This document shows positions 24 through 31,968 of a stretch of 32,212 bases of DNA, in pieces (position 1 is the stretch's first letter; each line of letters begins with the position of its first letter). A program made the translations under genes and the position numbers. The notes beneath the pieces were generated by a model. It made no database searches, was not told the DNA's origin, and worked only from the letters and a program-made list of their open reading frames with translations. This stretch comes from a candidate division WWE3 bacterium RIFOXYD1_FULL_39_9 (GTDB lineage: Bacteria > Patescibacteriota > WWE3 > UBA101185 > UBA10185), in assembly GCA_001773295.1 (NCBI GenBank), contig MEWG01000047.1, positions 1-32,212 of the forward strand, written 5' to 3'.

Positions 24-1040
24 TCACAATTTTTCCTTTCTATCTTTATCAATCAATAGTTTATCAATCACATTATGAACTCTTAAAGCATTACTCATGT
101 TGCAAATAGAAGAGTATTCTTCTTTCATAAGTACTTTATAAACGTGTTGATATAAATTCCGTAAAGAGAACTTTAAATCAGTTTCAAAGAAACAACTTGA
201 TACTCTTTCTTGAATTGATGGAAGAGAATAATAATCTCCATACGTTTCTTCTTTTTTACAAAGAGTAGTTGATATATTCAAAAAATGATTATCAAAAATC
301 CATCTTCTCTTTCCTGTCAAAAGATGCATTTCAAAACAATCAAACTTCCTACCGTCAACAGGAACAATAAAGATATTATCACACTTAGAATACTTCAATC
401 TAACTGCATATGTAGGGTCTGAAGAGTTATAATCAAGAATTGGTTTTGTATCTACAATCTCTCCTTCTATAAATGTTCCTGCTACCCAATTTAAAATGTC
501 GATTGCATGGCTCGCATCCCTTACAAACCCCCTTGTATAGTAAAAGACAATACTTTGAATATCATTTTCTTTCTGGATATGTTCTATTGCATATCTTATA
601 TATTGAGAAAATCTTCTTCCATAATTGACGATAACTTGAATATTAGATTCTCTACAAAGCCAATCTATTCTTGTTGCTTCATAGATATTTTGTCCTGCTG
701 GCTTTTCAAGGATGATAACTTTAGGTAGGGTATTTGGTCCTGCATGTTGTCTTGATATTTCTTCTATCATTGCTAAGTGCGTAGAAGTAGGAGAAGCAAT
801 AACAATAACATCTGCTATCGTTTCATGAAAGCCAAGAGCGATTTTGCAATTCCATTTATCTGCTGCTCGTTCTGCTTTTACTTCATCTACATCTCTTACC
901 CATGTAAGTTCAAAATTAGGATCAGAATAAACAGCATGGGCATGAGTCAATGGAAATTCTGTATTTGGAGAATCTAAATGATCCAGTTTTAAACCACCGA
1001 TTGACCCTGCACCTATTAGACCAACGGTAAATTTATTCAT
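24..1040 (-). CDS. Gfo/Idh/MocA-family NAD(P)-dependent oxidoreductase
   Basis: 338 aa. N-terminal Rossmann glycine motif (GLIGAGSIGG). Family-typical EKP motif (VIILEKPAG) and NYGRRF. Confidence 0.7.
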   Translation of the reverse strand: MNKFTVGLIGAGSIGGLKLDHLDSPNTEFPLTHAHAVYSDPNFELTWVRDVDEVKAERAADKWNCKIALGFHETIADVIVIASPTSTHLAMIEEISRQHAGPNTLPKVIILEKPAGQNIYEATRIDWLCRESNIQVIVNYGRRFSQYIRYAIEHIQKENDIQSIVFYYTRGFVRDASHAIDILNWVAGTFIEGEIVDTKPILDYNSSDPTYAVRLKYSKCDNIFIVPVDGRKFDCFEMHLLTGKRRWIFDNHFLNISTTLCKKEETYGDYYSLPSIQERVSSCFFETDLKFSLRNLYQHVYKVLMKEEYSSICNMSNALRVHNVIDKLLIDKDRKEKL

Positions 1041-1042
1041 TT

Positions 1043-1792
1043 TTATTCTCCTGGTTGTTTTGACTGCAACTTTCTGTTGACAAGTATTTGTGGATTGTCA
1101 AGTATGAAATCTACAATTTCATCTACTGTAATTGTTTCCCATCTATTTTGAGAAACAAAATGCTCTATGAGAGTTTTGATAACTTCAAAATCTTCTTTAT
1201 AGTCTAACGTCAATCTCAATCCTGGCCAATTATAAATTCCTTCTGCTGCAAGATTTTTAAATACAGTAAATTTTGGAGCTAATCTAATTAAGTTCCATCC
1301 TGTATGTTGACGAAAACTTCCATTAACTCTTTTGTTTATTTCTTTCAATACTTCTGTATTGTATATTTGAATATCGCTACCATCAAACCATGATCTTGGA
1401 TTTATATTGCTTACATGCACATCATATAAAATATGAGTTATATAGCGTTTATAAATTTCATGCAACTTATCTATTTGAAGTGGGTCTAAAAGTGGACAGT
1501 CTGAAGTAACATCAACAATAGTATCAATGTTGTAAAACGTAGTGCAACAAATTACTCTTTGCATTACGTCTTCTTCACTACCAACAAAAAAATCAATTCC
1601 ATTATCTCTACAATAATAAATTATCTCTTGACTGTTTACAGTCGTTGCTACAATAATTTTATCTAAACACTTTGCTTGCTTAACTCTATCTATCATCCAT
1701 TGAAGTATCGGCTTGCCTAAAACTTCCATCATTACTTTGCCGGGAAGTCTACTGCTGCCCATCCTCGCTTGGATTATTGCTGCTGTTGTCAA
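1043..1792 (-). CDS. Sugar-nucleotide cytidylyltransferase (NeuA/SpsF-like, CTP_transf_3 type)
   Basis: 249 aa. N-terminus AAIIQARMGSSRLPGKV..LGKP is the signature of acylneuraminate/SpsF-type cytidylyltransferases. Lies 2 nt upstream of the oxidoreductase gene. Confidence 0.7.
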   Translation of the reverse strand: MTTAAIIQARMGSSRLPGKVMMEVLGKPILQWMIDRVKQAKCLDKIIVATTVNSQEIIYYCRDNGIDFFVGSEEDVMQRVICCTTFYNIDTIVDVTSDCPLLDPLQIDKLHEIYKRYITHILYDVHVSNINPRSWFDGSDIQIYNTEVLKEINKRVNGSFRQHTGWNLIRLAPKFTVFKNLAAEGIYNWPGLRLTLDYKEDFEVIKTLIEHFVSQNRWETITVDEIVDFILDNPQILVNRKLQSKQPGE

Positions 1793-2659: not shown

Positions 2660-4381
2660 TTATTCTTTCCTTAAATATTCTTTCACTATATCAATTTGAA
2701 AACCATAACAGTGAAGTCCTTGACTATAAAAAGTAAGCGGCCCTGGCTCAACTCCTAATTCATTTGCAATGTATTCGTTAAGCAAAGTAAAGCCGCCCAT
2801 GTTTTCTGGAAAGCCGCAATTACCAGTTATTGAGATTAAGTTGTTTCTTCGCATAACAAAATTAGTATTTTTATTATTTACACACCAAACAAAACCACTA
2901 TAATTTTGTTTTTTCAAACCATTGTTATCAAAATGTTGCCTTTGAATCATAGACTCTTTTCTTTTTGAAAGATAAATTGCTCCATCGCCTTCATTTATGA
3001 TAGAGTGATATCCTAATGAATAAGATAACTTTTGGAACCATTGAAGTCTATCTTTTTTAATTGAATAAAATATTTTGTTTGTATCGCTTCTGATAGATCC
3101 GTCTGCCATAATCATGGTGTCAAACAAAGCTTTTCTGTCTTCATAAACCAAATCCAATAATTTTTCTATAGGTTCTCTTTTTGGAATTAGATTAAAAATC
3201 CATTTAGAATATTCTACAGGTATATAGAAAACATAACTTTCAACATTAATACCATTTGGATATTCCTTGTTGGCAATTTTATATTTTGTTGTTTCAACAA
3301 ATCTTTCTGAAAAATTGATGTTTAATTTGTTTAAAATATCTCTAATTTCTTTATGATATTTCTTTTTTGTTTGATATATTTCTATCGCATTGCAATCCTG
3401 TTTATAAGAAGCATCTGTCAAAACCCATCCGAGTAACGATGCCTTGTCAGATCCTATAGACCAAGATCCTCCAAAATACGGAGCTGCTAATGGTATAAAA
3501 GATCCATCTTTTGGTTGGATTTTTTCCGCTTGAGTATATTGATATTCTTGTATGATTCTTTTGCGTCCTGAATGCGTTACATATTTATGTAAAACTCTAT
3601 GATTAGCGGTAACAAGTTGATCAACTCTTTCCGTTTTTAAATGGTACATTGTTTCATTAACAACTGGATACTTAACTATGTTTGAAATATCGCAATATTC
3701 CAGTTGCCATTTATCTAAATTTAATGAACAAACAGTATCTTTATTTTGGTTTATTGTATTTATATTTTTCCATCCGTTGTTTGTTAATACTTCTGAATCA
3801 TCACTTATGCAATACAAGTCCCATGATCGATAAATGATACCAAGACAAACTTTATTCTCTTTCACTTTGATATCTATACCCCTAAGGCACGGAGAAGTCC
3901 TACGTTCCGTTTCATTTTTATATGGCTTGTCATATCCAAAGTTAGTATCTGGATCGCCTACAGTAATAAAAGGATGGTTATTACCGTATCCTTTTTCTTT
4001 TAAATGCCGAATGCTCCATTCAAGTTGAGACTCGTATTTATTAGAATAAACATTTCGCACCTTGCCATTGATCCAAGTAGCGTATCTATACTCTTCATTA
4101 GTAGATAGATTAGGGTCCATAAGATAGTTGGCAAAGTATTGCTCTATCTTTTCATCTGTAGTTGTTGGTGATACTCCTTGAGGCATAATCGGCGCAAGCG
4201 GTCTTGTATGTGGAAATTGAATAATACCAGCAGCAACAGGAAGTTCAAGTCTGTAATCTCCTTTCATACTGCCTTCTGTAATTTCATATTTAATTCCGTA
4301 TTTCCAACAACAAGAAAGAAGCATGAAATATGCTTCGTCTAAAGTATTTGCATTGACAAATCCTGGCATAAATTTATCCAT
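2660..4381 (-). CDS. Thymidylate synthase-family enzyme (ThyA-like or dNMP (hydroxy)methylase) interrupted by an intein
   Basis: The exteins carry the catalytic-Cys context TSPCLRGID. The YRSWDLY / CGFPENMGG pair corresponds to the ThyA RS-D..G-PfN motif, and the C-terminus has GLHCYG. 242 aa of extein plus a 331-aa insert. Confidence 0.8.
   Translation of the reverse strand: MDKFMPGFVNANTLDEAYFMLLSCCWKYGIKYEITEGSMKGDYRLELPVAAGIIQFPHTRPLAPIMPQGVSPTTTDEKIEQYFANYLMDPNLSTNEEYRYATWINGKVRNVYSNKYESQLEWSIRHLKEKGYGNNHPFITVGDPDTNFGYDKPYKNETERRTSPCLRGIDIKVKENKVCLGIIYRSWDLYCISDDSEVLTNNGWKNINTINQNKDTVCSLNLDKWQLEYCDISNIVKYPVVNETMYHLKTERVDQLVTANHRVLHKYVTHSGRKRIIQEYQYTQAEKIQPKDGSFIPLAAPYFGGSWSIGSDKASLLGWVLTDASYKQDCNAIEIYQTKKKYHKEIRDILNKLNINFSERFVETTKYKIANKEYPNGINVESYVFYIPVEYSKWIFNLIPKREPIEKLLDLVYEDRKALFDTMIMADGSIRSDTNKIFYSIKKDRLQWFQKLSYSLGYHSIINEGDGAIYLSKRKESMIQRQHFDNNGLKKQNYSGFVWCVNNKNTNFVMRRNNLISITGNCGFPENMGGFTLLNEYIANELGVEPGPLTFYSQGLHCYGFQIDIVKEYLRKE
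2819..3811 (-). mobile_element. Intein with in-frame LAGLIDADG homing endonuclease (331 aa, residues 191-521 of the precursor)
   Basis: Starts CISDDSEVLT (block A) and has VTANHRVL (block B). Two LAGLIDADG-like motifs: LLGWVLTDASY and LFDTMIMADGS. Ends ISITGN followed by the +1 Cys (CGFPEN). Boundary codons were checked on the nucleotide sequence: tgc at 3811-3809, aat at 2821-2819, tgc at 2818-2816. Confidence 0.8.
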
Positions 4382-4479
4382 TAACTATTCCTCTTCTTTT
4401 TCATTTCTTCATATCCTTCTTTGAAAAACCATCCTATGATAAGTCCGCAAATAAACATTATCAAAAGTTCTTCTGTCAT
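4381..4479 (-). CDS. Small hydrophobic protein (32 aa), possible membrane peptide
   Basis: Hand-translated MTEELLIMFICGLIIGWFFKEGYEEMKKKRNS. Its TAA shares one base with the ATG of the ThyA-like gene (TAATG). Below the ORF-track length cut-off. Confidence 0.35.
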   Translation of the reverse strand: MTEELLIMFICGLIIGWFFKEGYEEMKKKRNS

Positions 4480-4485
4480 TTTTGT

Positions 4486-4731
4486 TTATCCTTTTTCTGT
4501 GAAGGAGTTTACCATTGCTTTGTCTAATTGGTTGCAAAGTCTATCAAGACATAAACGGCAAATAAAAACACGACTTTTGAATATATCAAACTCTCTAACA
4601 TTTGGAATTTCTACAACTTGCGGAACATAACTACTACAGAAAGAACACGAAGCATTTACATTTTCAAATACGTTTGGCTCTGGTCTTGGATTTGAAATTA
4701 CTTTTGCTTTACTTAGATCAATTTTATTCAA
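4486..4731 (-). CDS. ClpX-type C4 zinc-finger protein
   Basis: 81 aa with a TTG start preceded by AAAAGGAG. CSFCSS...(22 aa)...FICRLCLDRLC resembles the ClpX N-terminal zinc finger pattern CSFC...IC..C...C. Confidence 0.45.
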   Translation of the reverse strand: MNKIDLSKAKVISNPRPEPNVFENVNASCSFCSSYVPQVVEIPNVREFDIFKSRVFICRLCLDRLCNQLDKAMVNSFTEKG

Positions 4732-4766
4732 GTTATATTCTCCTTTTAGTTTTGCTTTTCTGGTCG

Positions 4767-5366
4767 TTACGCGGCCTGCCGCGAATGTTCAGCGAGCCTC
4801 AAAAGTTCGTCCCTGAAAGCGATGGGTGTTGCGTTCGCTTCCTTCTTGCCTAAGGTCGGCTTGTTGCGATCTTTTCCACGCTGATCGTGGAAACCAATCT
4901 GATATGCGCCCATAGGGCGCGCCCATCTGAGTTCAAACGGCGCTACCTTGCCGACGTAATAAAGCCATGTTGCCTTGTTCGCTTTGTGACCATAAGCCGA
5001 CTGCCAGACCTCGCAAGTCCAACCGATACCATCAACAGACTTCACCCACGCGCCTTTTTTTGGCTTCGTTAAACCGAAGAAATTCCAAGCATATGTTTGT
5101 GCAGGGTGCTCCAATACACCGCCGTTGATTCTTACGGCGGCAAGCGCTGCATAAAAACAGCCACCATCTAACCACGGCACGTTGTGCTTGCCTCCCCATC
5201 GAGTGAAATTCACCTTAGCCATCTTCCCCCACTTCTGGCATGGTGGATGCGCAACAACAGGATTGAATCCTACATATTTTCTTGCGTCTCTGCCCACGTC
5301 CCAAGGATCGACAAAATTGAGTCCGAAATAGACGCCATTTTTCTCCACAAACAAAGCTGAAATCAT
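4767..5366 (-). CDS. Compact C5-cytosine-methyltransferase-like protein lacking a recognisable SAM-binding motif I
   Basis: AHPPCQKW matches motif IV (PCQ), and GVLEHP about 40 aa later matches motif VI (ENV). DQRGKDR may be QxRxR, and NATPIAFRDEL may be motif X. The N-terminus ALFVEKNGVYFGL stands where LFxGxGG is expected. The start at 5366 is preferred because GGAGGA lies 7 nt upstream; the track start is 5381. The ORF is about 53% G+C by hand count. Confidence 0.55.
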   Translation of the reverse strand: MISALFVEKNGVYFGLNFVDPWDVGRDARKYVGFNPVVAHPPCQKWGKMAKVNFTRWGGKHNVPWLDGGCFYAALAAVRINGGVLEHPAQTYAWNFFGLTKPKKGAWVKSVDGIGWTCEVWQSAYGHKANKATWLYYVGKVAPFELRWARPMGAYQIGFHDQRGKDRNKPTLGKKEANATPIAFRDELLRLAEHSRQAA

Positions 5367-5679
5367 AGGCCAGTCCTCCATATCATTACTATACCTTTAA
5401 TTTCTCCTTCTACCTACGAAGCAAAGTTCGCAGGTAGGTAGAGCATTATAGGCACATCAGCCGGTCGCTCTGAATCTTCATATATGAAGATTATAGTTTG
5501 CGAAGAAGAGCGGAGCCCGATCAAGGGCCAGTGTCACCTTGCGGCTCCATATGTATTCTATACTATTAATCTTACCCCTCCTATTTAATGGATTTTGAAA
5601 TCGTTTGGTTGGCTTTTACCAACCGCGTTTCATAAAGCACCTCCATCGTTTGTCAATGAGCGATTAATCATATGGTATA
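5367..5679 (-). promoter_or_regulatory. Long structured 5' leader or candidate ncRNA upstream of the MTase-like ORF
   Basis: No long ORF. Four stems: 5607-5624 (GGTTGG/CCAACC), 5512-5548 (GGAGCC..CAAGG/CCTTG..GGCTCC), a 20-nt perfect palindrome at 5473-5492, and 5410-5441 (CTACCTAC/GTAGGTAG) just before AAGGAG. A 5-codon mini-ORF MKRGW at 5616-5633 sits behind a GGAGGTG SD. An internal TTCAGA-N18-TATAAT lies at 5445-5474. Confidence 0.35.
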
Positions 5680-5685
5680 CAGCTT

Positions 5686-5716
5686 ATTATAATAAGATTT
5701 TTTGAAAAAATAAAAG
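5686..5716 (-). promoter_or_regulatory. Conserved promoter-like motif, copy 1
   Basis: Minus strand reads CTTTTATTTTTTCAAAAAATCTTATTATAAT. One of five near-identical intergenic copies (T-rich box, 9-10 nt, TATTATAAT). Confidence 0.5.
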
Positions 5717-5724
5717 ACGATTGG

Positions 5725-6351
5725 CTATTTTTTGACGTAGCTTTTATCAAGCTTTTTATCTATATGGAAAACTTTATCTCCTGCCTCACACAATATATCA
5801 TTTTGTGTAACGATAATAATTTGCAAGCTAAGTTTTTCGCTTATCTCTTTTACCATTTTAGCCGCTCGTTTATGCAGATTGCCAGCAGCAGAATTAAGAT
5901 GGCGAAATGGTTCATCGAATAAAAAGCAATTCATTTTCTTTGGTTCTTCTAAAGACCATAGGGTTGGCCGAAGCGCAAAAGATGCCACATCTACAATACC
6001 AAAACCAGTCCCATACATCGGTCTTCTTTCTTTGCCATCTTTAACAAACAAAGGAGATGCTTCTGTTCTGCCTCTTTTAATATCGAATCTGAGTTTTAAT
6101 TCATATGCATCTTCTCGAAAGATGGCTGTCATAGCAAGAGAAGCTAATTCGTTCAATCTAAATTCTAACAAAGATTGAGTTTGAAGTGCTATCAACTGGA
6201 TTATAGTTTGTGCTTTTTGACAGTTTATCAAATGCTCTTTGTTTTTCTCTATTGATATCTTATAACTTTTTACTTGCTCTAATATAGCATCTCTTTTTCC
6301 TTTTGCTCTATCTAATTTAGACCTTAGCCTTGAAGTTGAATCGTATCCCAT
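5725..6351 (-). CDS. sbcC: SbcC/Rad50-like ATPase, C-terminal half (coiled coil plus lobe II)
   Basis: 208 aa. Walker B/D-loop FLFDEPFRHLN. Signature-like segment GTGFGIVDVASFALRP. N-terminal heptad-rich region. RBS GAGGAAG lies 6 nt upstream of the ATG. Confidence 0.6.
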   Translation of the reverse strand: MGYDSTSRLRSKLDRAKGKRDAILEQVKSYKISIEKNKEHLINCQKAQTIIQLIALQTQSLLEFRLNELASLAMTAIFREDAYELKLRFDIKRGRTEASPLFVKDGKERRPMYGTGFGIVDVASFALRPTLWSLEEPKKMNCFLFDEPFRHLNSAAGNLHKRAAKMVKEISEKLSLQIIIVTQNDILCEAGDKVFHIDKKLDKSYVKK

Positions 6352-6598: not shown

Positions 6599-6802
6599 TT
6601 ATTTAAAAACAATATCTACAATCTTCTGTTGTATTTCATGTCTTGCTCTGGATTCTGCAATATACAAAGTAGCATCTGCTATATTTCCTTCTGCCGAGAT
6701 AACTCCTTTAATCATTTTAATGGCATCGACAATAGGTTTTATATCTTCTTCTTTTAATCCCTTTTCAATTGCTACTGTTACAGAATGATATTTATTACTC
6801 AT
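6599..6802 (-). CDS. Hypothetical protein (67 aa)
   Basis: The start was moved to MSNKYHS because that ATG forms an ATGA overlap with the SbcD stop (6799-6802). Confidence 0.45.
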   Translation of the reverse strand: MSNKYHSVTVAIEKGLKEEDIKPIVDAIKMIKGVISAEGNIADATLYIAESRARHEIQQKIVDIVFK

Positions 6803-7689
6803 TGTTGCATCCACCTCCATATAATATTTTTTACATTATCTTCTGTCTTATTCGCATTTGTATGCTCTTGCATATTCTTTCTAAAATTTAATTTAATGGA
6901 GTAATCCATTTTCATCGAATCGATATAAGTATCTATTCTTTCGTCCATCTCTTTTTGTACATTGATATGAGTCCTAACAACAACCGATTTGTCTATTGGT
7001 ATTTTTATCTCTTCAATGGAATTATCTTCTGCATACCAAAGATAAAAGCATGGCTGATGGTCGATCTGATCTGCATCCATTCTCATTACAGAACCAGCAT
7101 TGACAATCCTTCTGTTATTAACTTCTATATCGAATCTTGTATGATTGTCTCCGCTTAGAATTAAGTCGTATCCTTTTAACTCTTCCAAAATGTCATACGC
7201 ATTTCTGGTTTCAAACATTGCTTTTTCTAAACTGATTTGCATATGAACGAGACAAATATATGGCTCTTCGTCTCTTCTCTTTCTTCTTGGTTTTGGCTCT
7301 ATTCCATAAGGAAAACCTACTACTTTAAAACCATCGCAATCTATTGTTGTTTCATGATTTAAAATAACTTCTGCTTTGTTTGCTTCTTGTAATACTGCAA
7401 GGCCGGACTTATTAAATAGCTCCAAGTTATGGTTTTGGTTGTCATGTTGACCTGGAATACAAATAAATTCCGGCATATATTCAAGAGCAATGCGAAGTAG
7501 CTCGGGAGAAGGCTTCCAATAATTAAAGACATCCCCAGCGATTAATAAGGGAATATTATATTTGTCGCATATCTGATTAGCGTACTTTGCTTTATTTATT
7601 TGCGCTTGCATGAAATCATCTACACGACAAGTAGGGGTATCTTCTCTCCAGTGCCAATCAGAAGCAAGTAGTGCGGAAGGTTTTTTCAT
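6799..7689 (-). CDS. sbcD: SbcD/Mre11-family metallophosphoesterase nuclease
   Basis: Phosphoesterase motifs LLASDWHW, IAGDVFN, GQHDN and SGDNH. The start at 7689 (MKKPSALL) forms an ATGA overlap with the upstream stop. The longer track start lies inside the upstream gene. Confidence 0.8.
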   Translation of the reverse strand: MKKPSALLASDWHWREDTPTCRVDDFMQAQINKAKYANQICDKYNIPLLIAGDVFNYWKPSPELLRIALEYMPEFICIPGQHDNQNHNLELFNKSGLAVLQEANKAEVILNHETTIDCDGFKVVGFPYGIEPKPRRKRRDEEPYICLVHMQISLEKAMFETRNAYDILEELKGYDLILSGDNHTRFDIEVNNRRIVNAGSVMRMDADQIDHQPCFYLWYAEDNSIEEIKIPIDKSVVVRTHINVQKEMDERIDTYIDSMKMDYSIKLNFRKNMQEHTNANKTEDNVKNIIWRWMQQ

Positions 7690-8780
7690 TTCCAGTCTCC
7701 TCCGCACAAAGGGCATTCCTTCGGTGCCATCAGTTTATATTCTGTAGCCACTTTCTTATATTCTTTTTCTGCTTTCTCTAACTCTTCTTTGGCATCAATT
7801 ATTTTATTCTCTATTTCTATAAATTGGTCTATCTCTTTTCTAAGAGAATCAATTTCATTTCTTTGCTTTAGCAATAAAGATATATCTTCTTTTGCTTTAA
7901 CAATAGAATTTGCTCTTTCTATTTCATCTTCTAAATCAGCTATCTTATTTTCTATTGATTCTAATTCTGCTATCTTGTTTTCTATAGTAGATATTTCTTG
8001 CTTCAAAGATATAAGTTGTTCGATTTCTTTCTTGGCATTTACTGTAAGTGGTTTATATCTGTCTATCTCTTTTTGAAGTTCTATTATTTTGCTTTTACCA
8101 TTTCTTAATCTCTGCTCATCATTTCTAATAATAGATAAACTGGATTCTATTTGCTCAAGTTCCGTTAATTCTTTTTCAGCAGAATCAACCCAATTAAAAT
8201 CTTCTACTTGTAGTTCTGCTCTTATTAGTTCTGCTTCTTCTCTTTTTATTGTTGCTCTTGTATCCCTTATTTCACTATCAGCATTTCTAAATGATGTATC
8301 TATATCTGAAAGCGAAGCAATTTGATTTAGCTTCCTGCCTATTTCTCCTGGCTTATCTCCTACAAGAAAATGTGGATTGTCTTGCTCTTGAAAATTAATC
8401 TCGCTCATATTCAAGGGATTAGATACTTCATCTGGTACTCTTGTTCCTACTGCTTCAAGTGGTTTTGTTAATGTAGATATTCTATATTCATTTGACTTTG
8501 GTCCTTTGACTCTTGATATCTCTGTTCCGTCTTCAAATACAACAGTAAATATACACTCGCCGGTTAATTCAAAATCGCCATTTTTCTTTTTCTTCTTTAT
8601 CCAATCAGAAGCAAATTCGTTTCCGCTTGGATCATTATCTTTAAGCCATTTAAGTCCTTTAAGTATTGCCGATTTGCCTTTATCAGAAACACCGCAAATT
8701 ATATTGACATTGGGAGAAAGATCGAAAGTCTCTTTCTCCCATGACATAAAGTTTTGGATTTTGAATTGCTTAAATTTCAT
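7686..8780 (-). CDS. sbcC: SbcC/Rad50-like ATPase, N-terminal half (lobe I, coiled coil, terminal CxxC zinc hook)
   Basis: MKFKQFKIQNFMSW...NIICGVSDKGKSAI (Walker A), then about 190 aa of E/K/L/I heptads. Ends KECPLCGGDWK, a CxxC hook 5 residues before the stop. The ATG at 8780 is preferred over the TTG at 8849. Confidence 0.7.
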   Translation of the reverse strand: MKFKQFKIQNFMSWEKETFDLSPNVNIICGVSDKGKSAILKGLKWLKDNDPSGNEFASDWIKKKKKNGDFELTGECIFTVVFEDGTEISRVKGPKSNEYRISTLTKPLEAVGTRVPDEVSNPLNMSEINFQEQDNPHFLVGDKPGEIGRKLNQIASLSDIDTSFRNADSEIRDTRATIKREEAELIRAELQVEDFNWVDSAEKELTELEQIESSLSIIRNDEQRLRNGKSKIIELQKEIDRYKPLTVNAKKEIEQLISLKQEISTIENKIAELESIENKIADLEDEIERANSIVKAKEDISLLLKQRNEIDSLRKEIDQFIEIENKIIDAKEELEKAEKEYKKVATEYKLMAPKECPLCGGDWK

Positions 8781-8976
8781 TTTATTAAGTCTTTTAAATC
8801 TAAAATTCCTTTTGGTTTTTCTATAGTTGGATCTCCTGCAACAATCCAATACGCATATGTTACTGCTTGAAAAATATTTGCTGCTTTTAATTCCCCAATA
8901 TCAACAAAGTATTTATAAACAATAGAATCAATTTGCTGTTTTTCTTTTGCTGCTTGTTTTAAAGCATCTTATTGGC

Positions 8977-13481: not shown

Positions 13482-13558
13482 TGGTGCCGCTGCCTGGACT
13501 CGAACCAGGAACCAAAGCCTTATAAAGACTACGCTCTAACCTATTGAGCTACAGCGGC
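13482..13558 (-). tRNA. tRNA-Ile, anticodon UAU (reads AUA), CCA encoded
   Basis: Hand-folded 77-nt cloverleaf. Acceptor stem GCCGCTG/CAGCGGC, D stem GCTC/GAGC, T arm CCTGG-TTCGAGT-CCAGG. Anticodon arm TAGTC-TTTATAA-GGCTT has one 27:43 mismatch. 5-nt variable loop and 3' ACCA. Confidence 0.8.
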
Positions 13559-15878: not shown

Positions 15879-15903
15879 AATTTAAACTTTCCTCTTATTA
15901 CTT

Positions 15904-15933
15904 ATTATAATAAAGAAATTTAGAAAAATAAAG
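15904..15933 (-). promoter_or_regulatory. Conserved promoter-like motif, copy 2 (upstream of dnaX)
   Basis: Minus strand reads CTTTATTTTTCTAAATTTCTTTATTATAAT. 25 nt further downstream is the dnaX ATG, with AGAGGAAAG as RBS. Confidence 0.55.
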
Positions 15934-22789: not shown

Positions 22790-23037
22790 TTTTTTCTCCT
22801 TTCTTTTTCATCATTTCTATGCCAAGATTTTTCGCATGGCCAGCACGTTAACATAAGATTGTCAGGATCATTTGTTCCGCCATCTTTTCTATGCTTTATA
22901 TGGTGGATATGCCCTTTCATTTTTCCATTGTTCTCTTTGCTGCCTTTCTCCAAATACAATGCGCAGCCACATCGCTTGCATTTTTTACCATCTCTTTCAA
23001 AGACAAATTTCTTTCGTGCTTGAGATTGTCCAGACAT
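22786..23037 (-). CDS. HNH endonuclease
   Basis: 83 aa. CKRCGC...HIHHIKHRKDGGTNDPDNLMLTCWPCEKSWH (HNH with flanking CxxC pairs). Confidence 0.8.
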   Translation of the reverse strand: MSGQSQARKKFVFERDGKKCKRCGCALYLEKGSKENNGKMKGHIHHIKHRKDGGTNDPDNLMLTCWPCEKSWHRNDEKERRKK

Positions 23038-23045
23038 GGTACTCT

Positions 23046-23076
23046 ATTATAATAGATTTAGTTGAAAAAATAAAAG
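23046..23076 (-). promoter_or_regulatory. Conserved promoter-like motif, copy 3 (upstream of the HNH gene)
   Basis: Minus strand reads CTTTTATTTTTTCAACTAAATCTATTATAAT. Only 8 nt (AGAGTACC) separate TATAAT from the HNH ATG, with no SD, which implies a leaderless or near-leaderless mRNA. Confidence 0.5.
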
Positions 23077-27407: not shown

Positions 27408-27458
27408 GAAGCATTCCTTTCGAGTATGTTTTTTAGTATGTGGTAGCGGATTCATATC

Positions 27459-27488
27459 ATTATAATAAGACATTCCAAAAAAATAAAG
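27459..27488 (-). promoter_or_regulatory. Conserved promoter-like motif, copy 4
   Basis: Minus strand reads CTTTATTTTTTTGGAATGTCTTATTATAAT. Confidence 0.5.
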
Positions 27489-31918: not shown

Positions 31919-31937
31919 GTTTCCTTATTGTTATTTC

Positions 31938-31968
31938 ATTATAATAAACAAAGCTGAAAAAATAAAAC
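31938..31968 (-). promoter_or_regulatory. Conserved promoter-like motif, copy 5
   Basis: Minus strand reads GTTTTATTTTTTCAGCTTTGTTTATTATAAT. It abuts the stop codon of the upstream partial gene. Confidence 0.5.

Follow-up and report, generated by a model that had tools for sequence, protein, structure and literature searches.

A one-gene cassette acquired by a low-GC phage encodes a PHROG 12600 protein whose predicted fold resembles the catalytic core of C5 DNA methyltransferases

The question raised by this locus is how a GC-rich gene preceded by a long non-coding leader came to lie in a low-GC groundwater phage, and what its product might do. The gene is located on the reverse strand at positions 4767-5366 of contig MEWG01000047.1, whose 32,212 nucleotides (nt) are referred to as the window throughout, and its product of 199 amino acids (aa) belongs to PHROG 12600, a family of no assigned function. 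The original prediction described the region as a foreign island between a phage promoter and its gene, with a protein that retains the catalytic core of cytosine C5 methyltransferases (C5-MTases) and lacks their motif for binding S-adenosylmethionine (SAM). Taking sequence comparisons and a structural model together, we consider it reasonably probable that a one-gene cassette was imported, that it is most likely transcribed from the first copy of a phage promoter motif, and that it encodes a minimal enzyme of the C5-MTase fold which would activate a pyrimidine through Cys43 and Glu86, probably for SAM-dependent methylation directed against restriction. The gene and the cassette are delimited as follows:

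4767..5366 (-): open reading frame (ORF) of 199 aa, member of PHROG 12600; stop codon at 4767-4769; GC content 0.51, GC content at third codon positions (GC3) 0.53
5364..5379 (-): Shine-Dalgarno (SD) sequence GGAGGA, 7-nt spacer and true ATG (5366-5364), assigned from the sequence and from the starts of the homologues
4758..5395 (-): mobile cassette, comprising the gene, about 10 nt past its stop codon and up to about 25 nt before its ATG, assigned from blastn and junction alignments

Mechanical calling gives an ORF of 204 aa that begins at ATG 5381. In all 45 aligned homologues the start is a Met equivalent to ATG 5366, resulting in the length of 199 aa. The match of the 204-aa ORF to the PHROG 12600 profile covers the full length with an E-value of 4e-59 (residues 6-203, profile positions 3-197 of 203).

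Composition sets the gene apart from the surrounding phage DNA: the GC content is 35.2% for the whole window and 50.8% for the ORF 4767-5366 (-). At about 4745 it steps from 0.20 to 0.50-0.65 (40-nt resolution) and then stays at or above 0.40 up to about 5560, except for a short dip at 5060-5099 and a second one around the start codon (5360-5420). The hand counts that had led to the assumption of a foreign segment (32 of 60 nt G+C at 4801-4860 and 33 of 60 at 5101-5160, against 17 of 60 at 4381-4440) proved to be exact. GC3 is 0.53 in the ORF, in contrast to 0.195-0.31 in the four flanking phage genes. The difference thus exists at the codon level and is no effect of amino acid composition, and the segment is compositionally foreign to the phage backbone. 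Only the abruptness of the change would speak for an assembly chimera or for a GC content that is a by-product of the amino acid composition of the protein, an explanation to which we give next to no credence. Three independent assemblies from different samples (a 107-kb ENA scaffold, a Logan contig and a JGI contig) agree over a 12-kb region down to one mismatch, in L015, which excludes a chimeric assembly, and GC3 is independent of the amino acid content.

Comparison with related cassettes shows that the transfer was limited to the gene. The nearest relative (P0001, on the groundwater phage contigs L003-L008 with 53% GC) shares 93% identity on the protein level, and its DNA identity of 87.8% is limited to window positions 4760-5366 (blastn). 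For the next one (P0003, L009-L014) protein identity is 80% and DNA identity 74.5% over positions 4762-5390 (blastn). In every close relative checked the DNA similarity ends about 0-25 nt upstream of the ATG, and junction alignments showed that the upstream edge shared by the cassettes, about 20-25 nt before the ATG, consists of a stop-codon cluster and the SD sequence. The ratio of nonsynonymous to synonymous substitution rates (dN/dS) against L003 is 0.06 with a dS of 0.63, indicating strong purifying selection on the gene and hence a functional cassette. GC3 has barely shifted towards the value of the recipient, which points to a recent acquisition from a GC-richer phage lineage. Four different genes precede the family gene in L003, L009, L019 and L020, with a gap of 12-28 nt in the first three and of 136 nt, after a RecT gene, in L020, and across 80 genome loci the gene is found in further unrelated contexts. 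Horizontal acquisition, as originally proposed, is thus borne out by the GC3 contrast, by the restriction of similarity to the gene and by its unrelated contexts elsewhere. With its foreign codon composition, patchy distribution, gene-limited similarity and absence from sister phages the gene qualifies as a moron. The 81-aa gene downstream was considered as a further part of the cassette and rejected, as it is unrelated to the small ORF found at this place in L009 and has native GC3.

The cassette lies in a slot with the following surroundings:

5725..6351 (-): upstream neighbour, encoding the C-terminal ATPase part of a split SbcC/Rad50-like protein; marks where gene sharing with related phages ends and the variable slot begins
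5686..5714 (-): promoter motif copy 1, TTTATTTTTT-N10-TATTATAAT; sole copy found upstream of the leftward genes that run to the window end
4486..4731 (-): downstream neighbour, the 81-aa Cys-rich ORF, of native composition (GC3 0.195)

We located relatives of the host phage via the SbcC C-terminal gene. In L111 (91% DNA identity) similarity stops at window position 5799, inside the 3' end of this gene and before promoter copy 1. The slot of L111 contains a different Cys-rich ORF (915-1181) with a CxCxCG...SCGC N-terminus, which overlaps the stop of the SbcC C-terminal gene and gave no Pfam match. In L112 and L113 (67% protein identity) a similar promoter is followed by a leader of about 160 nt and then directly by the CTP-transferase gene, and in L114 and L115 (58%) two other small genes precede the CTP-transferase gene. 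Six IMG/VR relatives (35-39% identity on SbcD) keep the order RecA, SbcC-N, SbcD, SbcC-C, and none of the six carries the island gene, the 81-aa gene or the thymidylate-synthase-like gene of the window. The slot after the SbcC C-terminal gene is hypervariable and a hot spot of gene turnover. The 81-aa gene was not found at any related phage locus examined, and among the relatives no sister phage was found in which the SbcC C-terminal gene is joined directly to it. With L111 diverging before the promoter and carrying another ORF, and with the more distant relatives lacking the 81-aa gene, the proposal that the island landed between promoter copy 1 and the gene 4486-4731 was not substantiated. 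The SbcC/Rad50-like ATPase itself appears to be split into an N-terminal part with AAA_23 (7686-8849), SbcD (6799-7716), two small ORFs and the C-terminal part (5725-6351 (-)), and this order is kept in relatives (L105-L115) down to 35% identity.

A motif scan of the window confirmed the conserved promoter motif TTTATTTTTT-N10/11-TATTATAAT in five copies on the reverse strand, at 5686-5714, 15895-15932, 23037-23074, 27450-27487 and 31929-31967. At copy 3 an ATG follows the -10 element after 8 nt, which suggests a leaderless mRNA. A similar motif is present in the relative L112 at 5522-5555.

PHROG 12600 is a large family: 4,904 clusters at 90% identity were obtained in a word-indexed search and 2,163 clusters at 50% identity in an exhaustive search (E<=1e-3). 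Nearly all members have about 200 aa and no Pfam domain. Scans of the window protein against Pfam, NCBIfam and PADLOC gave no match, and about 50 relatives scanned likewise were also without a domain match. The family ranges from microviruses to 100-kb phages. Its carriers include tailed phages, phages of Ralstonia, Pseudomonas, Caulobacter and Xanthomonas, and several microviruses; members are also found in prophage-like regions, mostly of GC-rich Alpha-, Beta- and Gammaproteobacteria. Identity between the window protein and the phage members is 34-63%. SF2 (superfamily 2) helicases, N6/N4 and D12 methylases, DnaB, ParB, RecT, PolA and integrases are encoded next to family genes, and this neighbourhood is a loose module of DNA replication, recombination and modification. 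When we searched the neighbourhoods of the fetched loci for a conserved partner gene, none was found.

Some individual loci deserve mention. In at least four genome loci a helicase lies immediately upstream of the family gene, of SF2 type in L028, L066 and L072 and of SNF2 type in L009; the SNF2 helicase of L009 (1364-3976), the phage with the 80%-identical cassette, itself contains an intein. The family gene is intact but uncalled in the GenBank records of two phages, namely Ralstonia phage PQ43W (L001, 4001-4582) and MW202476 (L102, about 1501-2111). In the latter it directly follows an annotated N6-adenine methyltransferase. Two fusions were noticed: P0146 (364 aa) contains HNH_3 and AP2 domains at residues 185-274, with the family match split in two stretches, and P0172 (513 aa) has a NUDIX domain at its C-terminus. 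As fusion partners, one NUDIX domain and one pair of HNH_3 and AP2 are uninformative.

A possible function was approached via the predicted fold. The AlphaFold2 model of the 199-aa protein was built with a 46-sequence alignment and is confident, with a predicted local distance difference test score (pLDDT) of 91 and a predicted template modelling score (pTM) of 0.88. It consists of beta1 (2-5), beta2 (19-22), beta4 (37-39), a less confident loop or helix (41-70), a helix (70-81), beta5 (83-88), a short helix, beta6 (116-121), beta7 (132-138), a poorly conserved stretch and two C-terminal helices. In the model this order of elements fits that of C5-MTases, which is beta1, beta2, beta4 with PPC, helix, beta5 with Glu, beta6, beta7 and C-terminal helix. 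When the model was compared to the PDB using Foldseek, the first 32 places were all taken by C5 DNA MTases (M.HaeIII, DNMT3A/B, DNMT1, ZMET2, DIM2, M.HhaI). M.HaeIII was leading with a best probability of 0.96 and was aligned over nearly the full length (about 199 residues). Structural matches in BFVD were to phage proteins of small size (about 200-250 aa), of which some carry the name of cytosine or SAM methyltransferase; E-values went down to 2e-5.

Conservation was judged over 77 members with at most about 50% identity to each other. Y13, A28, H40, C43, G83, E86, P88, Q122, K131, L135 and P181 are invariant, and four blocks are conserved: H-P-P-C-x-R-W, G-G-V-L-E-H-P, Q-x-x-Y-G-H-x-A-x-K-x-T-W-L and T-P-x-x-F-x-x-x-L. 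By position and order these would correspond to the C5-MTase motifs IV, VI, VIII and X, in a mapping that was made by eye against M.HhaI (sequence checked to be that of 10mh_A) and that was reproduced by no alignment tool. At the place of motif IV, H40-P41-P42-C43 is 99-100% conserved and follows strand 37-39 of the model. At the place of motif VI, E86 is invariant, lies 43 residues past C43 and ends strand 83-88, with E-H-P in place of E-N-V. Both the PCQ at motif IV and the Glu of LEHP about 40 residues further on, on which the original prediction had been built, are thus present as P42-C43-Q44 and L85-E86-H87-P88. At the place of FxGxG the window sequence reads ALFVEKNGVYFGL, and the family shows L5-F/Y6-V7-x-x-x-G11-x-Y13 with neither a glycine-rich loop nor a helix after beta1 in the model. 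Its description as lacking the SAM motif is correct with regard to FxGxG, but the motif-I aromatic residue F/Y6 (100%) and G11 (95%) are conserved and the protein may still use SAM; the acidic D/E20 on beta2 is conserved to 91%. In place of a target recognition domain (TRD) about 35 poorly conserved residues (140-172, pLDDT 68-81) are located between beta7 and the C-terminal helices. Fold search and invariant residues agree that the protein resembles a C5-MTase catalytic core in which the nucleophilic Cys and the motif-VI Glu are kept and the glycine-rich SAM loop is missing. We infer that the protein is C5-MTase-like at the nucleophile step, which among the possible assignments is the one best supported.

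Several observations weigh against this assignment. C5 DNA MTases fill the top of the Foldseek list, yet the scores are weak, with a best E-value of 3e-3 and template modelling (TM) scores of 0.39-0.43. Of the PCQ the Pro and the Cys held up across the family and the Gln did not: HPPC-x-R-W is invariant, and position 44 is occupied by A, Q, E or S, with Gln in 25% of the members. With the FxGxG loop, the motif III strand and the TRD missing, SAM binding and DNA recognition are only predicted. None of 51 members (46 metagenomic, 5 phage) matched PF00145 at E<=10, and profile hidden Markov models from three alignments of increasing depth, run against all PDB sequences, gave only a chance match to L3. 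Using hhalign against M.HhaI or an M.HhaI-family alignment, the probability was below 3% and the motifs were unaligned; this family alignment is shallow, its members all being at least 71% identical with an effective number of sequences (Neff) of about 2, and therefore constitutes a weak test of homology. A canonical C5-MTase for a deeper profile was not present in the fetched loci. Furthermore, Rhodobacter microvirus Ebor encodes a 163-aa member (Gp8) which carries the label "putative DNA methylase" from an HHpred match only, and nanopore calling of Ebor virion DNA gave 1.58% 5-methylcytosine (5mC) (PMC11980548). This value does not point to heavy C5 methylation by the truncated homologue of Ebor. 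Membership in PF00145 fails on several defining features.

According to our preferred explanation, a low-GC groundwater phage acquired a single-gene moron in the hypervariable slot that follows its SbcC C-terminal gene. The moron would most likely be transcribed from promoter copy 1, with no further copy of the motif found upstream of the leftward genes, and be translated from ATG 5366 behind GGAGGA. The predicted fold is a C5-MTase catalytic Rossmann domain in pared-down form, in which the edge strand of motif III, the helix that follows motif I, the glycine-rich loop and the entire TRD are gone. Regarding chemistry, cofactor, substrate and a role in anti-restriction, we propose that Cys43 would attack C6 of a flipped pyrimidine and that Glu86 would protonate N3, as in C5-MTases. 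C5 would thereby be activated for the transfer of a group, most probably a methyl group from SAM. Sequence specificity may be low or may be supplied by a partner, and the modification would protect the phage DNA from host restriction.

Alternatively the protein may keep the nucleophile chemistry of C5-MTases and transfer no methyl group from SAM. It could use another cofactor, form covalent adducts with DNA or RNA, catalyse deamination or exchange at C5/C6, or act on single-stranded DNA (ssDNA) or RNA. This would agree with the absence of the FxGxG loop, of the helix after beta1 and of motif III, with the invariant family-specific block R26-D27-A28-R-x-Y31-x-G33 at the place of motifs II and III, with the presence of the family in ssDNA microviruses and with the little 5mC in Ebor (PMC11980548). 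In addition there is a precedent for non-methyl transfer to C5 by a phage C5-MTase homologue, CmoX (PMC12783734). The conservation of F/Y6, G11 and D/E20, however, fits a reduced SAM site; no partner for cofactor synthesis such as CmoA accompanies the gene, and the closest structural neighbours in BFVD include annotated SAM-dependent methyltransferases. We regard such chemistry as rather unlikely, though still a serious alternative. Extended to the whole of PHROG 12600, a rather speculative proposal would be that the family constitutes a minimal enzyme of the C5-MTase fold, lacking TRD and canonical SAM loop, with a non-canonical Cys/Glu reaction (SAM-independent, non-methyl, or sequence-independent on ssDNA or replicative intermediates) that serves as a portable one-gene counter-defence.

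The remaining question is whether the leader between promoter and gene belongs to the cassette and has a function of its own. All elements which the original prediction had listed here (the SD sequence with MKRGW, the hairpins, the palindrome and TTCAGA-N18-TATAAT) were found where it had placed them. The leader and its elements are:

5367..5685 (-): orphan non-coding leader between phage promoter and gene; GC content 0.43
5607..5644 (-): SD sequence GGAGG with 5-codon mini-ORF MKRGW (mini-ORF and SD 5644-5616) and hairpin GGTTGGT/GCCAACC (5624-5607) holding the stop codon
5512..5548 (-): GC-rich extended hairpin GGAGCCG...CGGGCTCC; no T-run after it
5473..5492: perfect 20-bp palindrome AATCTTCATATATGAAGATT; unique in the window, 0.01 expected per window by chance
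5445..5474 (-): sigma-70-like TTCAGA-N18-TATAAT with 10 of 12 matches
5409..5442 (-): strong hairpin with a stem of 9-11 bp, directly upstream of the cassette boundary
5363..5386 (-): 7-codon upstream mini-ORF, MIWRTGL and stop, whose TGA overlaps the main ATG (ATGA); read from the sequence, no comparative support

The longest ORF in 5367-5724 has at most 36 aa. About 90 relatives with a readable gene (91 loci) contain no comparable leader: the nearest upstream ORF on the same strand lies within about 240 nt and usually abuts or overlaps the gene. Searches of more than 110 fetched loci by blastn, nhmmer and six-frame tblastn turned up nothing homologous to the leader. Likewise three exact-pattern scans of IMG/VR, including the palindrome and an 18-mer of the 5' arm of the hairpin at 5512-5548, gave no match. 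When Rfam 15 was searched over 4300-6200 at E<=10 only two chance-level small RNA (sRNA) matches were obtained, one of them on the opposite strand over the first 75 nt of the leader, and at gathering thresholds the whole window gave only tRNA. The idea that the leader belongs to the gene therefore had to be given up, as relatives have no comparable leader and DNA similarity ends shortly before the ATG. The leader lies outside the conserved cassette and is by default best read as orphan spacer DNA, although one may conjecture that a part of it comes from the immediate donor. A decayed 3' end of a donor gene was also considered as its origin and rejected, since the leader gave no coding signal and has nothing in common with other cassettes beyond the cluster of stop codons that lies about 20 nt before the ATG.

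Two functional interpretations of the leader have to be weighed against that of spacer DNA. It could be a cis-regulatory RNA (riboswitch, attenuator or translational switch) which controls the imported gene, for example through a stem on the AUG 5366 region that could open on binding of a ligand or on translation of a mini-ORF. Compared with dinucleotide shuffles the leader is more stably folded (z = -4.0 overall), with the signal concentrated in 120 nt at 5380-5499 (z = -7.5 on the transcribed minus strand, -4.2 on the other strand). The local minimum free energy (MFE) structure pairs the region of AUG 5366 with upstream sequence and would sequester the AUG and part of the SD region, and each of two mini-ORFs is preceded by an SD-like sequence, one of the two extending into the main ATG. 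On the other hand, no stem is followed by a terminator-like T-run, the Rfam check that had been suggested yielded no known riboswitch or cis-regulatory family beyond the chance-level sRNA matches, and relatives are without a comparable leader. No homologous leader was found that could lend support through covariation, and we consider the riboswitch or attenuator interpretation decidedly improbable.

The leader might also reflect a self-regulated cassette. A part of it (about 5405-5560, GC content 0.44-0.62) would then have been imported with the gene and provide its own sigma-70 promoter at 5474-5445, with the palindrome as operator of a dimeric repressor. That the leader at 0.43 has a higher GC content than other intergenic gaps (0.21-0.39) would fit, and so would the palindrome, which is perfect, occurs far beyond chance expectation and abuts the -35 hexamer. 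Its originally proposed overlap with the -35 box amounts to only 2 nt, however, and the TTCAGA-N18-TATAAT itself could not be upheld as a promoter, since promoter-like sites in the region are at chance level (5 found, 5.7 expected). A second copy or half-site of the palindrome is absent from the 32 kb, no candidate repressor travels with the gene, and the closest cassettes have no such region. A self-regulated cassette thus appears quite doubtful. We retain the preferred explanation, i.e. an imported gene for a minimal C5-MTase-like enzyme that is most likely transcribed from promoter copy 1.

Further features of the phage were noticed in the window. An intein-like insert, which has a weak match to the intein N-terminal splicing region, interrupts a 573-aa thymidylate-synthase-like protein (2660-4381 (-); TIGR03283, E = 6e-12). 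The gene of this protein is adjoined by a dCMP deaminase gene (1794-2336), and the two genes hint at a modified-pyrimidine pathway. CTP_transf_3 and GFO_IDH_MocA proteins are encoded at 24-1792 (-), and in the relative L114 (7511-12636) such genes are followed by those for a DegT aminotransferase, NeuB and an epimerase. The block looks like phage-borne nonulosonic-acid or CMP-sugar biosynthesis. A tRNA-Ile with anticodon UAU (13482-13558 (-); ARAGORN, 68 bits in Rfam) is located at the edge of a 284-nt intergenic gap with a GC content of 0.39.

Taken by itself the window offers a modest and clean case of recent transfer of a single gene from a GC-rich phage lineage into a recombination-prone slot of a low-GC phage. 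Neither the leader nor the insertion between promoter and gene, which had given the locus its exotic look, found support; the case points to a large unstudied family. If this family is active it would represent the smallest C5-MTase-type catalytic unit known and would reveal how much of the fold, TRD and glycine loop included, can be lost without loss of function. In addition a very common phage counter-defence gene that is now unannotated would have been identified.

Compared to known systems, the window protein has true homologues in Rhodobacter microvirus Ebor (Gp8), Pseudomonas phage Persinger, Caulobacter phages Jess A and RapA and Ralstonia phage PQ43W, with which it shares a common length class and the invariant residues. 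The microvirus members are shorter (163-165 aa), and among the members of PHROG 12600 only the copy in the window belongs to a low-GC phage and lies behind a long leader. With M.HaeIII (1dct/3ubt), M.HhaI (10mh) and PF00145 the protein has the order of core strands and helices in common. PF00145 enzymes and the window protein further share the PPC-x-x-W/F nucleophile loop after beta4, the Glu ending beta5 about 40 residues on, a YG...basic motif on beta6/7 and a C-terminal helix beginning with (N/T)-(A/V/T)-P. The window protein differs from them in its length of 199 aa in comparison to about 330 aa, in lacking the TRD, the FxGxGG loop and the motif III strand, in having EHP for ENV and in the variable residue at the place of the Gln of PCQ.

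CmoX of Synechococcus phage S-B43 is a DNA cytosine C5-carboxymethyltransferase that uses carboxy-SAM (Cx-SAM) (PMC12783734). It shows that a phage-borne C5-MTase homologue can go beyond plain methylation and is a precedent for altered cofactor use in this fold. CmoX is encoded beside the phage Cx-SAM synthase CmoA (PMC12783734), whereas the gene family described here occurs alone and without the canonical cofactor loop. As far as they are portrayed in a review cited in PMC9239249 and PMC11499846, the orphan MTase morons that phages use against restriction can be recognised as Dam, Dcm or N4 enzymes, whose SAM motifs are complete and which have a DNA-recognition element, in contrast to the window protein without FxGxG and TRD. 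Within the same scope both have in common that a single gene moves between unrelated phages, in the case of PHROG 12600 including microviruses, and that it is located in DNA-metabolism modules, often beside other methylases.

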